Virus record (IMG/VR): IMGVR_UViG_2802429231_000003
Length of the DNA: 8,242 nucleotides
Strand: one strand, 5' to 3'
From: a virus
Taxonomy: Duplodnaviria > Heunggongvirae > Uroviricota > Caudoviricetes
Position numbers and translations under genes: made by a program
Shown: one piece after another, positions 293-8,242 of the stretch
How the letters are laid out: the number at the start of each line of letters is the position of its first letter
Numbering within the stretch: position 1 is the first letter of the stretch
Notes under the pieces: generated by a model
Databases searched by the model: none
What the model saw: the letters and a program-made list of their open reading frames with translations, nothing else
What the model was told of the DNA's origin: nothing

Positions 293-525
293 AGATGCGG
301 CGCTTCTTGATGCCGCCCGACGGTCTGGCAGCGGGCGCGAACGCTGTTTTGCACGAAATAGCTTTTCCGTGCGCTCCATTGAACATCCCTTCTTTTCGCT
401 GATTTTAGCTTCCTGTTGTTCTGGTTGTTTGCCGGATGCCTGATTTTACCAGATACCCGCCAGGCGAGCTTTCCGGCTTTCAAACCTGAAATTCAGGAAA
501 AATCATCTCTATATATACAAAAAGG

Positions 526-814
526 TGTTGTCCCTGTTGTCCCGGTTGTCCCAAAAAATGTAACCAACTGATTTTATTGAATCTTATTTTTAATTGTGGG
601 ACAACATGCCAGCATTGTGGGACAACATGCCCTGTTTCTGTGTTGTCCCGGATTGTTGGCTGATGAATGTTGTCCCAAAACTTCCTGACGTTGTCCCAAA
701 ATCGCCGCATGTTGTCCCAGAAACACGCTATGTTGTCCCATAATTATCTGATGATATGTATAAATAACAGTAAGTTAGTTAAAAAACGTCTTCATTGGGA
801 CAACCGGGACAACA
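526..814. repeat. Iteron array, putative replication origin: 12 copies of TGTTGTCCC/GGGACAACA flanking A+T-rich spacers
   Basis: Direct copies at 526-534, 535-543, 545-552, 641-649, 668-676, 690-697, 710-718, 731-739 (about 21 bp periodicity in the central block); inverted copies at 598-606, 619-627, 797-804, 806-814; A+T-rich stretches at 553-596 and 740-790; lies immediately 3' of the replication-protein gene, as in SaPI/PICI and P4 origins. Confidence 0.75.
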
Positions 815-834
815 TCTTTACGCGCACGTATGAA

Positions 835-2976
835 TTATTCGGCTTCTTCTTCCTCCTGTTCAGGTGCGAAAAGCAGGATATATGCACGCTGCCGGGCGTT
901 ATTCTGATGTTTCAGGCGCGGTGTTCTGCCCTGCCAGCCCCTGCCGCTGGTGGGTTTCTTAAGCATTCCCGCATCATGCAGTACCTGCGCCACTGCGTCC
1001 TTGTTAAAGCCTCTGGCAACGTGTTCTTTAAACGGTGCCGGAAGCACGTAAAACAACATCGGGTCATCATACCGTTCGCCCTTGTCCCGGTAGCCCATCA
1101 GTTCACCGATGTGGAGATCTCGCGGATCATAATCCACGGGTGCAAATTTGCTCATGCCCCAGGCGTTAAGAAATGCCACTGCCTGTTCTGCAATCTGCTG
1201 GTGTTCTTTGTTCCCGGTGCCGAACTCTTTCACCCAGGCATTAAAGCTGCGCTGTACCGCATCCCGGCACCCTTGCGCATCCCATCCGGTGATATGGCCT
1301 GACAGCACCAGCGCCGCTTCCATGATGGCGAATCGCTCCCCGACGCGGTGGACCTGCTCGCCGTAGTTGTCCGGGATAAGCCCGCGCCAGCGTTCCCTTG
1401 CGGCTTCTGTGGCCTCCCGCGCCGCCTGCTGGTGGTCTGCCAGCCAGCGCACCCATTCACGCCCTGCGGTGCCATGATGCGCCATACAGGCCGCTCTGAG
1501 CGCATCAGCATGAGCTTTACCGGACGGCAGCCCGTGAAATTCCGTGGCCTTCTCCAGGGGCACATTAAGCAGGCGCACCAGTTGCCCCGCTTTGGGCTTC
1601 ATGCCTGCGGCTGCAAGAAAGGTTTCTATGTCCATTTCTCCGGTACTGATGGCGACAGTTCGCCAGCGTTTAAGCTCCCGGTTACCGCCTTCCTTCGCGC
1701 CCTGTAGTTTCCCCACACCGTTAAACAGCGTATAGGCAGACGTTGCCACGGCGCGGGCGTCACTGCCCTGACCAACCTCATCCAGGGGCATCAGGCCGTC
1801 ATTGTGCGCCTGTGCCTCGTTAGCGATACCCAGCGCAGTACCGTACCAGGTGAGGCGCAGTAAATCCGGGTTACCGTACAGACTGCTGGCGATGTTTGCT
1901 GTGGTGGTTTTCCCGGCGCTGGACTGCTGGAAGAAATGGACGCCGAAGCCATCCGCACCCACCAGCCCGACCAGCGGCGCGGCAAGTGCTGCCGCCACGC
2001 CCAGCATCATGGAAGGATTACCCGCCACCAGCGTGGCGACGTTCTCCCGCCAGCTCTGCGCCGTACCTGCACAGGTGTAACCGGAAGCCGTCGCGCTGTG
2101 ACCGTAAAACAGGACCTTCCGGCCCGCCTCGCCGATGATTTCCCCGTCCGGCATGATGTACGCGCCGTGCTGCCATCCGGTCAGGCTGGTGATGTGCCAG
2201 AGTTCCCCCGCGCCACTGCGCAACAGGTGATCGGCAAGGATGGCGCGAAAGTTGTTTTTAGCCGTGACAGAAAGCCCACCAGCACGTAACCGCGACCAGC
2301 CTTCATGCTCGCCAGTATCACGCATGGGGATCGCTTCGGTGTGCGCTGTACGCGCGCCTGCGGGCTTCCAGCGCAGAACAATATACCGCTCGGACTCATC
2401 CGCACCGATGCCCACCACCTCAAGAGGATCACACAACCACTGACCGGGGCGGGTAACTTCCCCGGTCTGCTTATCCATCTTTGGCGTTACCCAGTACAGA
2501 CCGTCAGGGCGGGCATCCACACAGGGGGCCAGCTCATCCACCGGCGCAGGTTTGCCCTCTGCCCGTTGTACCTCTGCCACCAGACTTTCTTCCCCGCGTT
2601 CGTGCTGTTCGCGTATCCGGTTCAGGTAGTCGCGCCAGTCTTCCGGGTGCTGGTCAGGTATCCCCTGGTATAACTTCGCTTCCTGTACGCCCGCCAGCGC
2701 CAGCTTTTCAGCAATGGCGTTAATCTGAATGGGCTTAATATCTCCGGCATGATAGAGGCGGGCGCACTTACGCCCGTTATCAATAATGCGCAGGTTCGCC
2801 AGGTCTGCCAGTTGCTTTGGCCCCAGCCAGACAGGCGGCGTTTTATCTGCGGCAACTTTTAATCCCCAGTCCTCTTCCCATGTTTTAGCGTGAGCGAAGG
2901 CATCAGCCCCGGCAAAGATAACCACCTCAACATGTTTATCTTTCGGTTGATGCTTAAGGTTCGGTGCGTTCTTCAT
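835..2976 (-). CDS. Replication initiator, primase/helicase-like P-loop NTPase (713 aa); DUF927-type replication protein as found in P4-like/PICI elements
   Basis: Long intact ORF; Walker A-like motif QQSSAGKTT; RBS GGGAGG about 9 nt upstream of ATG; start overlaps upstream gene stop (ATGA); iterons directly downstream; acidic C-terminal tail. Family assignment is from recalled sequence character, not a search. Confidence 0.8.
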   Translation of the reverse strand: MKNAPNLKHQPKDKHVEVVIFAGADAFAHAKTWEEDWGLKVAADKTPPVWLGPKQLADLANLRIIDNGRKCARLYHAGDIKPIQINAIAEKLALAGVQEAKLYQGIPDQHPEDWRDYLNRIREQHERGEESLVAEVQRAEGKPAPVDELAPCVDARPDGLYWVTPKMDKQTGEVTRPGQWLCDPLEVVGIGADESERYIVLRWKPAGARTAHTEAIPMRDTGEHEGWSRLRAGGLSVTAKNNFRAILADHLLRSGAGELWHITSLTGWQHGAYIMPDGEIIGEAGRKVLFYGHSATASGYTCAGTAQSWRENVATLVAGNPSMMLGVAAALAAPLVGLVGADGFGVHFFQQSSAGKTTTANIASSLYGNPDLLRLTWYGTALGIANEAQAHNDGLMPLDEVGQGSDARAVATSAYTLFNGVGKLQGAKEGGNRELKRWRTVAISTGEMDIETFLAAAGMKPKAGQLVRLLNVPLEKATEFHGLPSGKAHADALRAACMAHHGTAGREWVRWLADHQQAAREATEAARERWRGLIPDNYGEQVHRVGERFAIMEAALVLSGHITGWDAQGCRDAVQRSFNAWVKEFGTGNKEHQQIAEQAVAFLNAWGMSKFAPVDYDPRDLHIGELMGYRDKGERYDDPMLFYVLPAPFKEHVARGFNKDAVAQVLHDAGMLKKPTSGRGWQGRTPRLKHQNNARQRAYILLFAPEQEEEEAE

Positions 2977-3960: not shown

Positions 3961-4150
3961 GATGCGCCCCCGTAGCGGGCAGACGTCCAGCGAAGAAGCA
4001 GACACTTTCCCGCGCAAGCTGGCGGCGGGCTTCATGCTCGCTATCTGCGGCGATATGGTGGATTTTTGCGGTGATAGTCGGGCAATCGCGGCGAACGGCA
4101 GCGATAAGCCAGATGAATCGCGGGTGTGACGGGGTAAGGGTAGCGACCAT
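3953..4150 (-). CDS. Hypothetical small protein (65 aa), first gene of the replication operon
   Basis: ATG at 4148-4150 with GAGG about 9 nt upstream; stop overlaps next gene start; position analogous to kil-like first genes of the P4 left operon (analogy only). Confidence 0.55.
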   Translation of the reverse strand: MVATLTPSHPRFIWLIAAVRRDCPTITAKIHHIAADSEHEARRQLARESVCFFAGRLPATGAHHE

Positions 4151-4314
4151 AGCGGTGGCCTCGTGAGTAGGTTTATTAACCTCACCAGACCGCTGCTAAA
4201 CGGGGTGGTGAGACGTAACAGGGTTAGCAGACCGGCACTCACGAAACCGGCAGGCGCGAACGCCTCCCCGTTACGCCCCACCATAATACGGACGCAACAT
4301 GGCATTTTACGGAC

Positions 4315-4346
4315 AAAAAAAGACCGCGTTACAGAATGGTCGCGGT
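4315..4346 (-). terminator. Putative intrinsic terminator in the leader of the replication operon (minus strand)
   Basis: Minus-strand RNA ACCGCG-(12 nt loop)-CGCGGU followed by C and seven U (top-strand A run 4315-4321); lies between the divergent promoter region and the first operon gene. Confidence 0.45.
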
Positions 4347-4404
4347 TGTCCGCGCGAGTATTCAGGCTGCTAAACCCGGCCAGTGGATTTACACCAGCGG
4401 GAAA

Positions 4405-4434
4405 AGCATAGCGCCGGGCGGCAGTGTCAGGCAA
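4405..4434 (-). promoter_or_regulatory. Candidate sigma70-type promoter for the leader/replication operon
   Basis: On minus strand TTGCCT (top 4434-4429), 18-nt spacer, TATGCT (top 4410-4405); each hexamer is only a 4/6 match. Confidence 0.2.
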
Positions 4435-4445
4435 GGGATTTTTTT

Positions 4446-4480
4446 GTGATGTAATCACTTTCATCAGTACGTTACTGATG
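4446..4480. promoter_or_regulatory. Two adjacent operator-like dyads upstream of the plus-strand two-gene module
   Basis: GTGAT-gta-ATCAC (4446-4458) and CATCAGTA-cgt-TACTGATG (4462-4480), the latter with perfect 8-bp arms; just upstream of TATGAT (4482-4487) and the RBS AAGGAGAGG. Confidence 0.35.
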
Positions 4481-4512
4481 TTATGATTTACATCAACAAG
4501 GAGAGGCAAATT

Positions 4513-5158: not shown

Positions 5159-5177
5159 CGGTACGAGGCGTTTATCG

Positions 5178-5209
5178 GGGCGTGGATATCCTCTGCGCCC
5201 TTTTTCTTT
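5178..5209 (+). terminator. Intrinsic terminator after the plus-strand two-gene module
   Basis: 9-bp stem 5178-5186/5192-5200 (two G-U wobbles), 5-nt loop, then TTTTTCTTT. Confidence 0.65.
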
Positions 5210-5273
5210 GTCCGTATGTCAACTTTTGACAGGTTGAGGCCAGACACGGGCAAGCTCTTATTCTGAATGCTTA

Positions 5274-6098
5274 TCATTGAACTACCTCCAGGCGACGGGC
5301 TAACCAGCGCTGAGACAGGCGCAGTAATTCTGTCTTGCGCTGGTGGTAGTCCTGCCTCAGTTCTATTAGCGTGATATTGGTCTGCTCAAGATAAGAAAGG
5401 TGATCGAGTTGTTCCTCGCTCATATGGTCGCGGGCTTCGCCGGTGATGCCGTTCGCCTGCGCCCACTGTTTCGCTGTCATTCCACCCAGCACGATCCGCG
5501 CCAGCATGTTCGATTCAGTTGTGTAGTGATGTGGTTGTGTGGCCTTGCCCTGTTCCTGCCTCACCACTTCCAGCGCGGCGCACATCGGCTTAAAGTAACT
5601 GGCGGCGGTGATACGGGCCTTAAGTTCTTTGCGCAGCGCAGCGGCTTTTAACGGGGCTTCCTGCTGTAATGTTTCCTCGCAGTGAATGAAGTAACGACGA
5701 ACGGCGCGGCCCTGCTCGTTGCGTTCGACCATCGCCAGCTCTTTAGCCATATTCAGCGAAAGCAAATACTCCCGGCTTCGTCTGTCCCCACCGCGTCTTG
5801 TTTCCCACGCCTTTCCATCATGGTTATTATTTGAGCTTTGATTCCTGAAATTTGAGGAATCAAAAAGGGTGTAGTCACTGTCAGCAATGAAACCATATTC
5901 CTCAATGCGGCCCTTAATCCATGTGGAAAAGTCATTTCCCACACCCAGCGCGGCATGTAACTCCTTTGCACTTACCACGCTGGCAGGCTGGCTACCGATA
6001 ATGCCGGAAATAACCGGGATGAGTTCGGCAAAATTATTCTGGTTATGGTTTTCAGGGTGAGCGATGCCCTGACCGTGAAGGCCATTAATTAATTTCAT
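5274..6098 (-). CDS. Phage antirepressor, AntA/AntB N-terminal domain family (274 aa)
   Basis: Segment YLLSLNMAKELAMVERNEQGRAVRRYFIHCEETL matches the conserved core of AntA/AntB antirepressors as recalled; AGGA RBS; 14 nt downstream of the preceding gene on the same strand. Confidence 0.75.
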   Translation of the reverse strand: MKLINGLHGQGIAHPENHNQNNFAELIPVISGIIGSQPASVVSAKELHAALGVGNDFSTWIKGRIEEYGFIADSDYTLFDSSNFRNQSSNNNHDGKAWETRRGGDRRSREYLLSLNMAKELAMVERNEQGRAVRRYFIHCEETLQQEAPLKAAALRKELKARITAASYFKPMCAALEVVRQEQGKATQPHHYTTESNMLARIVLGGMTAKQWAQANGITGEARDHMSEEQLDHLSYLEQTNITLIELRQDYHQRKTELLRLSQRWLARRLEVVQ

Positions 6099-6112: not shown

Positions 6113-6544
6113 TCAGGCGGCGTTCTGGTTATCCGGGTACATCATGAGGATGCTTTCGATAGTCTCCGGGGTAAGGCTCCAGTAGCCACCAGTACTGGCA
6201 CACTGATTGACCAGCTTAATGACCTTCATCACGTCCTCACGGCAGGCAAAGCGGTAGCGAAGATGTGCCCCTATACCATCGGCATTGGCTTCTTCTGAAC
6301 GCGCCAGGCAGATATCAAGGCGGCGCTCCAGTTCACTGGCGTAATTGCGGCCTGATGAAAGATGGCAGTGGCGCAGAATATCGTTTTCAGTCCAGCCACC
6401 AGCACCAGTGCAAAGCATATAAACGCGGGCGCGGTGCTTCTTCGGTGTGCGTCTCGCTTGTGTGCGGCTGGTGGTGGGGATAACATCAGACGGGCGAATA
6501 TCTGTGTTAGCCGCCTGCTGTTCGGGGCGGTTTTCTTTTTTCAT
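6113..6544 (-). CDS. Hypothetical protein (143 aa), co-transcribed with the AlpA-family gene
   Basis: ATG overlaps the AlpA gene stop (ATGA); basic N-terminal region; no recognisable domain. Confidence 0.6.
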   Translation of the reverse strand: MKKENRPEQQAANTDIRPSDVIPTTSRTQARRTPKKHRARVYMLCTGAGGWTENDILRHCHLSSGRNYASELERRLDICLARSEEANADGIGAHLRYRFACREDVMKVIKLVNQCASTGGYWSLTPETIESILMMYPDNQNAA

Positions 6545-6753
6545 TGCGCCACCTCGCCGCGTGATTCAAATACACGATCATTTATCCATTTATTAACTTC
6601 GTCTTCAAACCAACCAACACGGCGTAGGCCAATGCGAAATCCTCGCGGAAATTCGCCAGCGTTAATCATCTCCTGAAATGCGCTATCTGATTTAATACGT
6701 AAAATCATTTTTACTTCTTTTTTGAGAAGGATCTTTCTTTCTTCTGATGTCAT
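6541..6753 (-). CDS. alpA: AlpA/Vis-family phage transcriptional regulator (excisionase-like HTH), 70 aa from ATG
   Basis: Pattern ILLKKEVKMILRIKSDSAFQEMINAGEFPRGFRIGLRRVGWFEDEVNKWI resembles the AlpA-family HTH; the track ORF extends to 6771 only with a TTG start, so the first ATG (6751-6753) is preferred. Confidence 0.7.
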   Translation of the reverse strand: MTSEERKILLKKEVKMILRIKSDSAFQEMINAGEFPRGFRIGLRRVGWFEDEVNKWINDRVFESRGEVAQ

Positions 6754-6890: not shown

Positions 6891-7619
6891 TTAAGCCACT
6901 TTTGATGGGGTGCGATCGATTGGGCAAGCGATTTTTTCGATAGCTTTGGCTGTCGATTCAACAAATCCGTAACTGGTTTTAAGCTCTGTAATTATGGCCT
7001 GCTGGTTAACTCTGGTGCCATTATTGTTAGGGTCATACTCTGCCCATTCACAATTCCTTATCCTGATAGCCTGATACAGAGGGTCTCTTTCTACGCCTCC
7101 GATAAACTTACCCAAGTGAAGAGGATACGATTTTTTTAAAACCTCAATATCTCTTTCTAGTGCGGTAATTTTATTCTTAAGTTCGGATATCTCTTGTGAC
7201 TCTTGATTTGTACGCGATGGCGGCTGTAATCCCACCTCGTAGGGGTGGTTAATTATAATGGCATTATATTCTGTGAACTCATTTTCAACCCAAGTCCAGA
7301 TGTCCTTTGCCAGAAAGTTAGCATCTACTATATGTGTGTTGATATTAATATTATCATTTTCAACTAAGCTTAGGATATCAATTGGGAGATCCCATGAAGG
7401 GTCAGAATATGTGTAAGCTTTCAGTGGGATAACTTCTTTCAATTTAATAGCTTGACATATAATTTCTTTAAATGATGAAGCTTCTTCATCGCTAATGTAG
7501 CCACTGATAATATTTGGATCAAGAGTATCGTACTCACCGGATAAGCCTGCCATAACTAAAGCTGCTTGCTCTAAAGTCACAATTCTGAGTCGTTTAATAT
7601 GGAAAGGTAAATCAATCAT
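6891..7619 (-). CDS. Hypothetical protein (242 aa) in a markedly A+T-rich gene; candidate accessory/cargo gene
   Basis: Intact ORF with GAGG RBS about 8 nt upstream; composition visibly much more A+T-rich than flanking genes; predicted coiled-coil-like segment (ESQEISELKNKITALERDIEVLKK); no recognisable domain. Confidence 0.7.
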   Translation of the reverse strand: MIDLPFHIKRLRIVTLEQAALVMAGLSGEYDTLDPNIISGYISDEEASSFKEIICQAIKLKEVIPLKAYTYSDPSWDLPIDILSLVENDNININTHIVDANFLAKDIWTWVENEFTEYNAIIINHPYEVGLQPPSRTNQESQEISELKNKITALERDIEVLKKSYPLHLGKFIGGVERDPLYQAIRIRNCEWAEYDPNNNGTRVNQQAIITELKTSYGFVESTAKAIEKIACPIDRTPSKVA

Positions 7620-7919
7620 TACGCCACCTCACGCCCTCTATCATGGAGGCCGCGCCAACCCGCAGAGGTGTACGGGAATTCGGGAGCTACCCTAGACGCG
7701 GCTTATTCTGTTACCGTCGGTTATCTTCGGTTTTGCCCATGATAGATCGTTTTCTGAACGCTTGCATTGCAAGACTGTGTGAATAATCAGCTTGTGTTTT
7801 TATACAGCTCTAATTCCTCTCATTCCTGTTGCTAGGGTCACTCCCGTGGATGCGGTTTCCACAAATTCCCCCCACCAGCGCATCAACACAATACGCTTTT
7901 CAAGATAGTTACTCCGGTT

Positions 7920-8242
7920 ATCAATTTGCGCGTAAGACCTCGCCCAATCGGGCGGGGATATAAGCGCGGTAACTGCGTAACATTTTTTGACCTTCGTCAA
8001 TATGGCTTACATTTTTCAGTGTATTTTGTAAGCCTATGAAACGCGCCTATAAATACAGATTCTATCCAACACCCGATCAGGTTGAGCTTTTGGCTCAAAC
8101 GTTCGGGTGTGTGCGTTTTGTCTATAACTCGATCCTGCGTTGGCGCACCGATGCGTACTACGAACGGCAGGAGAAGATCGGCTATACACAAGCCAGCGCT
8201 CGCTTAACAGCACTGAAAAAAGAGCCAGATTTTGCCTGGCTC
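7920..8242 (+). mobile_element. Left end of an IS200/IS605-family insertion sequence (tnpB-only type or tnpA lost), truncated by the window edge
   Basis: TnpB N-terminus begins at 8036; subterminal hairpin CGCCC-AATC-GGGCG at 7941-7954 (extendable to 7938-7957) about 80 bp upstream, consistent with an IS605-family left-end structure; left boundary approximate. Confidence 0.5.
8036..8242 (+). CDS. tnpB: IS200/IS605-family transposase accessory protein TnpB (OrfB), N-terminal 69 codons, partial
   Basis: Translation MKRAYKYRFYPTPDQVELLAQTFGCVRFVYNSILRW matches the conserved TnpB/OrfB N-terminus; in-frame stop at 7988-7990 upstream; ORF runs to the last base, so it is absent from the complete-ORF track. 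Confidence 0.8.
   Translation, partial: MKRAYKYRFYPTPDQVELLAQTFGCVRFVYNSILRWRTDAYYERQEKIGYTQASARLTALKKEPDFAWL

Follow-up and report, generated by a model that had tools for sequence, protein, structure and literature searches.

In the left operon of satellite P4 the genes eta and kil are nested in a vis-eta arrangement, and eta encloses the promoter P_LE, the seqA element, the cI RNA and the Rho-dependent terminator timm. As the experimental work has been summarised, eta harbours a constitutive promoter, early termination is caused by CI and seqA (recognised by the Rfam models C4 and isrK), Kil is a shortened form of Eta, and translation of eta lets transcripts from the late promoter escape Rho termination (PMC10111431). 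The DNA analysed here is a stretch of 8,242 nucleotides from a virus of the Caudoviricetes (IMG/VR record IMGVR_UViG_2802429231_000003), and the whole of it is referred to as the window. A long stop-free frame on its minus strand was compared with eta, and a short palindrome lying within that frame was analysed in this setting.

The junctions of P4 and the window are alike. The vis gene of P4 ends in ...GCATGATGATG and eta starts there, and the end of antA in the window, ...CAATGA, likewise overlaps the start of the ORF; the vis/eta junction reads ATGATGATG and that of the window GGAGG-7 nt-ATGA. The N-termini are also alike, being MMMPALQKLPFSGL for P4 Eta and MISIQNKSLPVSGL for the window ORF. 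The ORF of both elements holds the a1b1/isrK (seqA) and C4 (CI) RNAs, the P4 ORF ending at 8168, and in both a 65-aa kil/icd-like gene comes next, with a primase downstream and an alpA/vis homolog upstream. The differences lie in length (about 199 aa for P4 Eta against 619 codons in the window), in coupling (eta to vis, but the window ORF to antA, two genes after alpA), in the primase, which is of the DUF927 type and not P4 alpha, and in kil, which is the in-frame terminal part of eta in P4 whereas it lies in another frame in the window, where the ORF fuses to the next gene. A toxin-antitoxin (TA) cassette antisense inside the ORF is present in the window only. P4 is without the NLSKPDI box described below, and its eta start is only about 60 nt from seqA.

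The immI region of P1 and P7 (c4, a1b1/a2b2, icd, ant) has the C4 and a1b1 RNA families in common with the window, together with an antirepressor-family gene in the same operon, and P1-type plasmids show about 79% identity to window positions 4146-4379, annotated there as Icd-like. The arrangement differs in that antA lies upstream of C4 in the window and not downstream, and the window belongs to an integrase-bearing satellite, not to a P1-like plasmid prophage. We know of no equivalent of the read-through ORF in P1 immI. Bidirectional terminators form a third point of comparison: the palindrome of the window, like them, lies between convergent annotated genes and adjoins a true terminator hairpin, but its stem is weak and AT-rich, it has no U-tract on either strand and it sits inside a frame that is predicted to be translated.

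Satellite layout and the reading frame coupled to antA

The layout of Pfam, PHROGs and Rfam matches, together with near-identical copies, identifies the window as a P4-like satellite of about 10 kb in an Escherichia-like host (Table 1). In public assemblies, the near-identical copies extend to a P4-type integrase beside tRNA-Pro(GGG) and yejM, the latter sharing 96% identity with its E. coli counterpart. The C4 antisense RNA scored 79.3 bits against a gathering score of 45. The int-alpA RNA motif is found likewise in related satellites. The TTGCCT-18-TATGCT sequence just upstream of a1b1 resembles the TTGCCT-18-TATAGT of P4 by eye and received no call in the consensus scan; as read from the sequence, it is likely a constitutive P_LE-type promoter inside the ORF.

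Table 1. Positions, strands and basis of assignment of the features of the window
Feature	Position	Strand	Basis or remark
TGTTGTCCC iterons, at least 9 copies, both orientations, 21-bp phasing	521-815		directly after the DUF927 primase stop
DUF927 primase	835-2976	-	Pfam/PHROGs
180-aa gene, 65-aa gene and DUF4222, after the kil/icd-like gene		-	gene layout
eta-like read-through ORF, 619 codons	3418-5277	-	stop-free frame, coupled start
kil/icd-like gene, 65 aa	3953-4150	-	Icd-like annotation in P1-type plasmids; phrog_6928, profile positions 138-198 of 202
immunity RNA block	4201-4411	-	Rfam
C4 antisense RNA	4201-4288	-	Rfam
isrK-like RNA	4317-4398	-	Rfam
a1b1 targets	4359-4411	-	Rfam
P_LE-like promoter TTGCCT-18 nt-TATGCT	4405-4434	-	by eye against P4 and relatives
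two TGATGT-N8-(A/T)CATCA dyads upstream of tumE, candidate TumA operators	4447-4495	+	kept in three cassette lineages
tumE toxin gene, 93 aa	4513-4794	+	PF20126, E 4e-14; gene calls
tumA-type antitoxin gene, HVO_A0114 HTH family, 119 aa	4799-5158	+	PF25212, E 3e-21
TA-operon intrinsic terminator, 10-bp stem then TTTTTCTTT	5177-5201	+	sequence and terminator scan
conserved 20-nt box, AACCTGTCAAAAGTTGACAT	5216-5235	-	consensus in relatives and small-terminase genes is AACCTGTCAAAACCTGACAT
coupling junction GGAGG-TAGTTCA-ATGA: Shine-Dalgarno GGAGG (5289-5285), 7-nt spacer, ATG (5277-5275) overlapping antA TGA	5274-5289	-	read from sequence
antA, AntA/AntB antirepressor family, 274 aa	5274-6098	-	PF08346, E 9e-24
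alpA, followed by a 143-aa gene and then antA	6541-6753	-	gene layout
242-aa gene	6891-7619	-	gene layout
int-alpA RNA motif, between the 242-aa gene and the window end	7635-7702	-	Rfam, 43 bits against a gathering score of 35.8

The stop codons of the minus strand were counted from 5277 to 3961. The frame of the 5277 ATG contained 0 stops against 30 and 18 in the other two frames. Within the resulting 619-codon ORF lie the TA cassette in antisense, the P_LE-like promoter, a1b1/isrK, C4 and, in another frame, the kil/icd-like gene; the ORF then runs on into the 180-aa gene, to which it is fused. No minus-strand terminator was called by the terminator scan between antA and a1b1 (5274 to 4411). 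The frame is intact in 13 of 13 near-identical copies, where it measures 619 or 606 codons, the length difference of 39 nt keeping the frame. The shorter form of 606 codons occurs in L005, L006, L007 and L012. The kil/icd-like gene was called at 52 aa, against 65, in L005, L006 and L012, while a single 446-aa gene was called across this stretch in L007.

The same arrangement was observed beyond this lineage. The GGAGGT...CAATGA junction is common to many related satellites, where it stands after antA or after an intervening DUF4222 gene, and the peptide that starts after it matches that of the window, MI..Q.KSL(S/P)(L/V)(A/S)GL; altogether, the start of the ORF resembles that of the equivalent ORF in 40-odd related satellites. 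The interval from the antA stop to the Icd-like start was analysed in 44 distinct relatives, and one frame carried 0-4 stops against 3-33 in the other two, the few stops in the open frame deriving from an interposed gene. This open frame passes through a1b1/isrK and C4 and ends as the kil/icd-like protein in several of the relatives (L020, L080, L023 and L015).

The N-terminal 14 residues of the window ORF align with those of P4 Eta, with Q5 invariant and the K/LP/SGL motif in common (QxK.LP.SGL). The Pfam family Phage_ASH matches P4 Eta and the ORFs of relatives (E 1e-23 to 1e-33), and it gave no match to the long ORF of the window at E<=1. The window ORF is accordingly called eta-like, a term that refers to its architecture and N-terminus and not to proven membership of the family. 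By analogy with P4, transcripts from the alpA-antA promoter would read through the region of the palindrome, ribosomes on the eta-like frame would shield these transcripts from Rho-dependent termination in the immunity region, and such protection would allow the replication genes to be expressed. We infer read-through and anti-polarity from P4 and from the selection against stops presented below. The eta principle of P4, in which a long leader ORF is translated through an RNA-based immunity and termination region, would then extend to many satellites of the C4/isrK type with DUF927 primases.

A toxin-antitoxin cassette antisense to the open frame

The tumE and tumA genes are absent from this position in about 90 antA-bearing relatives. 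As none of these relatives carries them here, the cassette is an insertion. Its left edge lies at about 4445, just upstream of the P_LE-like promoter, and its right edge at about 5213, just beyond the T-tract of the terminator, where the palindrome abuts it; global DNA alignment of the window with its relatives across the cassette was too noisy for placing the junctions. The TGATGT-N8-(A/T)CATCA dyads upstream of tumE are probably antitoxin operators overlapping the TA promoter. These two dyads are bridged by a 19-bp perfect palindrome, CATCAGTACGTTACTGATG (4462-4480). The TA terminator is one-directional, the U-tract being present on the plus strand only and GATAAAC following the hairpin on the minus strand. 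A terminator with a similar T-tract follows tumA in L047.

The effect of the cassette on the open frame was analysed by counting stops in the antisense of tumE-tumA, in the frame of the 5277 ATG. The window has 0 stops, while the homologous cassettes of L039, L040, L041 and L043, which lie elsewhere and are convergent with alpA, have 5 stops in the same frame. The cassette of L047, scored at 6 stops, was left out of this count, its tumE segment being out of register with that of the window. Synonymous resampling of the TumE and TumA codons with the codon usage of the window gave an expectation of 4.8±1.8 stops, with P(0)=0.0019. Four of the 5 stops of the E. coli cassette were lost through substitutions that leave the TA proteins unchanged (CCT TAT to CCG TAT, GTT CAG to GTA CAG, GTT TAT to GTA TAC, and TTA to CTC), and the fifth was removed by an I-to-V change. 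Such a pattern is what the P4 mechanism predicts, and the comparison is good evidence that selection keeps the frame open. Removal of stops that is silent for toxin and antitoxin amounts to a natural experiment, which suggests that the selected property is the open frame, that is its translation, and not the protein that it encodes. Read-through of the leader and expression of the TA genes would run head-on, and this arrangement could couple induction of the satellite to control of the toxin.

The same TA cassette, at about 75% DNA identity, is found at 3700-3860 of L039 and L040 (E. coli ET791 and ECONIH5) in another element of the integrase/alpA/Icd type, where it is convergent with alpA and has a different hairpin pair downstream. 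The TA cassette evidently moves between satellite backbones.

The dyad at 5217-5231 and the conserved box around it

An earlier note had reported a perfect palindrome between convergent transcription units and had proposed a protein-binding site or part of a bidirectional termination structure, with the reservation that so short a dyad could be due to chance. Direct reading of 5217-5231 agrees with the description: TGTCAA (5217-5222), CTT (5223-5225) and TTGACA (5226-5231) form a perfect inverted repeat with 6-bp arms around a 3-nt spacer, and the neighbours that had been named are in place, the plus-strand terminator hairpin (5177-5201) on one side and the antA stop (5274-5276) on the other. 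The reservation about chance was justified: first-order Markov simulations gave 24.3±6.3 perfect dyads with 6-bp arms and spacers of 0-10, and the window contains 32; for a spacer of 3 alone the simulations gave 2.2±1.5, and the window contains 4. With counts at the level of chance, the dyad is statistically not unusual. The convergent arrangement did not hold up in the same way: the reading unit of antA continues into the ORF that is coupled at 5277 by its Shine-Dalgarno sequence and ATGA, and this ORF runs through the dyad. On the minus strand the dyad corresponds to codons 16-21 of the ORF, cTG TCA AAA GTT GAC Ata, which encode L-S-K-V-D-I.

The search for further copies in the element, which the note had recommended, returned this single copy, with no other found in the window when up to 2 mismatches were allowed. 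No copies of the dyad or of its half-sites were found in the related loci either. The hexamers TGTCAA and TTGACA occur once and twice in the window, respectively. The dyad is exact in the near-identical copies L001-L013, but these barely differ from the window and are hence uninformative on conservation; the 6+3+6 geometry is confined to this lineage.

Conservation was seen in the sequence around the dyad, which forms a 20-nt box. Variants of this box were found in the same ORF region of relatives, always in frame: AACCTGTCAAAACCTGACAT in L020 and L105, AACCAGTCAAAACCTGACAT in L015, AACCTCACAAAACCTGACAT in L017 and L023, and AACCTGTCAAAACCTGTCA(C/T) in group a, a large Klebsiella/Enterobacter-type group. 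The box is thus kept in frame in at least 6 divergent satellite lineages whose flanks cannot be aligned with one another, and the window matches its consensus at 18 of 20 nt. It follows a conserved ...GL within a few codons in the window, L017 and L020. Since L017 and L020 are without the cassette and have the box in the same place, the box predates the cassette and is no junction scar. The box is absent from several satellite lineages of the same backbone, such as L034, L051 and L075.

The symmetry of the dyad behaves differently from its sequence. The consensus box already includes TGTCA-N5-TGACA, an inverted repeat with 5-bp arms, and a lineage-specific CC-to-GT change (Pro to Val) in the window adds one pair to each arm. 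In group a the inverted repeat has become a direct repeat, ACCTGTCA-AA-ACCTGTCA (TGTCA...TGTCA), and the left arm is broken in L015 (AGTCA) and in L017/L023 (TCACA), in each case without compensation. These uncompensated breaks in three lineages indicate that the sequence is conserved whereas the dyad symmetry is not consistently so. The conservation in relatives that the note had asked about is accordingly found for the box and not consistently for the palindrome, and its idea of a protein-binding site retains the conserved sequence but loses the symmetry in 3 of 6 lineages.

On balance we favour the reading that the dyad belongs to the translated leader and is no signal between operons, that its palindromic look is incidental to the box, and that neither termination nor control of the TA module depends on it. 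The dyad itself would then be of little weight, a short palindrome that looks signal-like only because the overlapping unannotated ORF was missed. The box is too well kept for a neutral leader; it, and thus possibly the dyad, may act in a sequence-specific manner. Pairing of the box with the C4 or isrK RNAs gave duplex energies no better than background in five elements. No paper containing the box sequence was found, and a search of the literature on satellites and pac sites gave nothing applicable.

The box in small-terminase genes and the alternative readings

More than 120 viral contigs contain the exact 19-mer of the box, in most cases as the codons for ENLSKPDI in Terminase_2 genes. In 76 distinct contexts it encodes N-L-S-K-P-D-I within ...AGYSAKTANRTASENLSKPDIQ..., which belongs to the HTH region at the N-terminus of Terminase_2 small terminases (Pfam E 7.5e-40). 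The Terminase_2 (PF03592) small terminases of enterobacterial phages carry AACCTGTCAAAACCTGACA(T) at the end of the HTH motif ...AGYSAKTANRTASENLSKPDI..., identical to the satellite box, and a small-terminase gene matches the window at 20 of 22 nt. The similarity between satellite and small-terminase gene (terS) ends after 20-30 nt; BLASTP gave no alignment of the eta-like N-terminus with the small terminase, and Pfam found no Terminase_2 domain in the ORF of the window or in those of its relatives. The satellite box sits in a leader-like ORF while the terS box sits in a packaging gene. Among 56 terS sequences the N, S, K, P and D codons showed almost no synonymous variation (0-0.09), and several other codons were equally invariant. 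The 20-nt identity between satellite leaders and phage small-terminase genes can be tested.

These matches bear on the foremost alternative to the translated leader, namely that the box with its dyad is a DNA site for a protein, either a dimer on TGTCA-N5-TGACA or a reader of phased boxes. Candidate binders would be a regulator of the satellite or helper, or the small terminase of the helper, for which the box would be a mimic of the packaging signal. We consider this reading possible but rather unlikely. The persistence of the box among unalignable flanks and in so many terS genes fits a DNA site, although other terS codons are as invariant as those of the box. The box is found in non-coding DNA as well, in L167, L178 and L193: in L167 no ORF covers it and two related boxes lie 68 and 23 nt upstream, the same being seen at 69 and 24 nt in L105, and in L178 an array of TGTCAG repeats beside a tRNA gene surrounds it. 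Against this, the element has a single copy of the box, and the looser box pattern was set after the sequences had been seen, so its enrichment is no independent test. The inverted repeat of the consensus would suit a dimer, but it is broken in group a, L015 and L017/L023 as described; the box is missing from lineages of the same backbone, and no candidate binding protein was identified.

The three related boxes, GCAAATGTTAAC, GACAAATnnnGAC and CCTGTCAAAACCTGACA, were found at 3811-3898 of L105, 11204-11290 of L167 and 3975-4035 of L086. Their spacing is kept between L105, where they lie in the satellite ORF (69/24 nt), and L167, a 70-kb viral contig where they are non-coding (68/23 nt), while the spacers differ.

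A more specific proposal, which we regard as doubtful, is that the box is a cis-acting recognition signal common to satellites and the small-terminase genes of their helper phages. If so, it may mimic a packaging site inside terS, letting a satellite without packaging genes be recognised by the helper terminase, or it may be a shared binding site for a regulator, with the phasing of boxes A, B and C that is seen in L105 and L167. The CC-to-GT change would in that case have tuned the copy of the window towards a stronger inverted repeat. A separate likeness to the small terminase was observed in the a1b1/seqA region of P4 (L117, 8653-8705) and relatives, where the eta frame gives GYS(A/F)..AKS(G/A)AG, which resembles the small-terminase AGYSAKTA in protein and in DNA (GGKTAYAGCGCA). 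This likeness may be a coincidence or may reflect shared ancestry of the eta region and the 5' end of terS.

It is unlikely that the dyad is purely a product of chance, possibly a scar of the junction between cassette and backbone, with the dyad and the surrounding 20 nt functionless. The dyad count at chance level, the position against the right edge of the cassette and the origin of the extra arm pair in a lineage-specific change all agree with such a product, but the window retains 18 of 20 nt of the consensus box and matches a small-terminase gene at 20 of 22 nt, and the box stands in the same place in the two cassette-free relatives. A cassette-free relative with exactly TGTCAAAAGTTGACA would date the dyad before the insertion.

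The terminator, operator and promoter readings are jointly most improbable. The first of them, that the dyad is an RNA hairpin which ends or stabilises the antA message, or which forms a bidirectional terminator with the hairpin at 5177-5201, has a very slender chance of being correct. The hairpin is present in the minimum-free-energy folds of both strands and lies 43 nt past the antA stop, but it is missing from the centroid fold of the minus strand, and the folding z-scores of +0.45 (minus) and -1.14 (plus) are no better than those of shuffled sequences. Its 6-bp stem has 2 G-C pairs of 6 and is followed by GGTTGAGG on the plus strand and TACGGACAAAG on the minus strand, with no T-run on either, and it was not among the calls of the terminator scan. 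In the strong hairpin next to it the U-tract is confined to the plus strand, and the ribosome-coupled ORF traverses the site of the dyad. The bidirectional termination structure proposed in the note accordingly found no support.

It is harder still to credit that the dyad is a TumA operator or that its TTGACA hexamers are the -35 elements of outward promoters. TumA is an HTH protein, but its probable operators are the TGATGT-N8-(A/T)CATCA dyads upstream of tumE, which are kept in three cassette lineages and differ from the dyad at 5217-5231, and the homologous cassettes of E. coli and viral contigs have no such dyad downstream of tumA. Both strands carry TTGACA, which matches the -35 consensus, but no -10 hexamer lies 16-18 bp from either copy, the sequences there being GGCAAG (plus) and GGCGCA (minus), and the scan found no promoter. 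As a -35 element the box was rejected likewise, since none of the lineages conserves a -10 and the scans gave no call. The dyad was also rejected as a part of the TA cassette, because the 3' flanks differ in the E. coli and viral homologs and BLAST similarity to the E. coli cassette reaches exactly to the stop codon of tumA. The sequence CCTGACA at 4431-4425, across the cassette from the box, was considered as a homolog of the right half of the box and was found to be part of the conserved promoter-like stretch upstream of a1b1.

The dyad was finally rejected as an iteron, as the iterons of the element are the TGTTGTCCC repeats and are unlike it. This array is probably the replication origin of the satellite. 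The 211-aa plus-strand ORF listed at 667-1302 starts on the iterons, whence its MLSQ... start.
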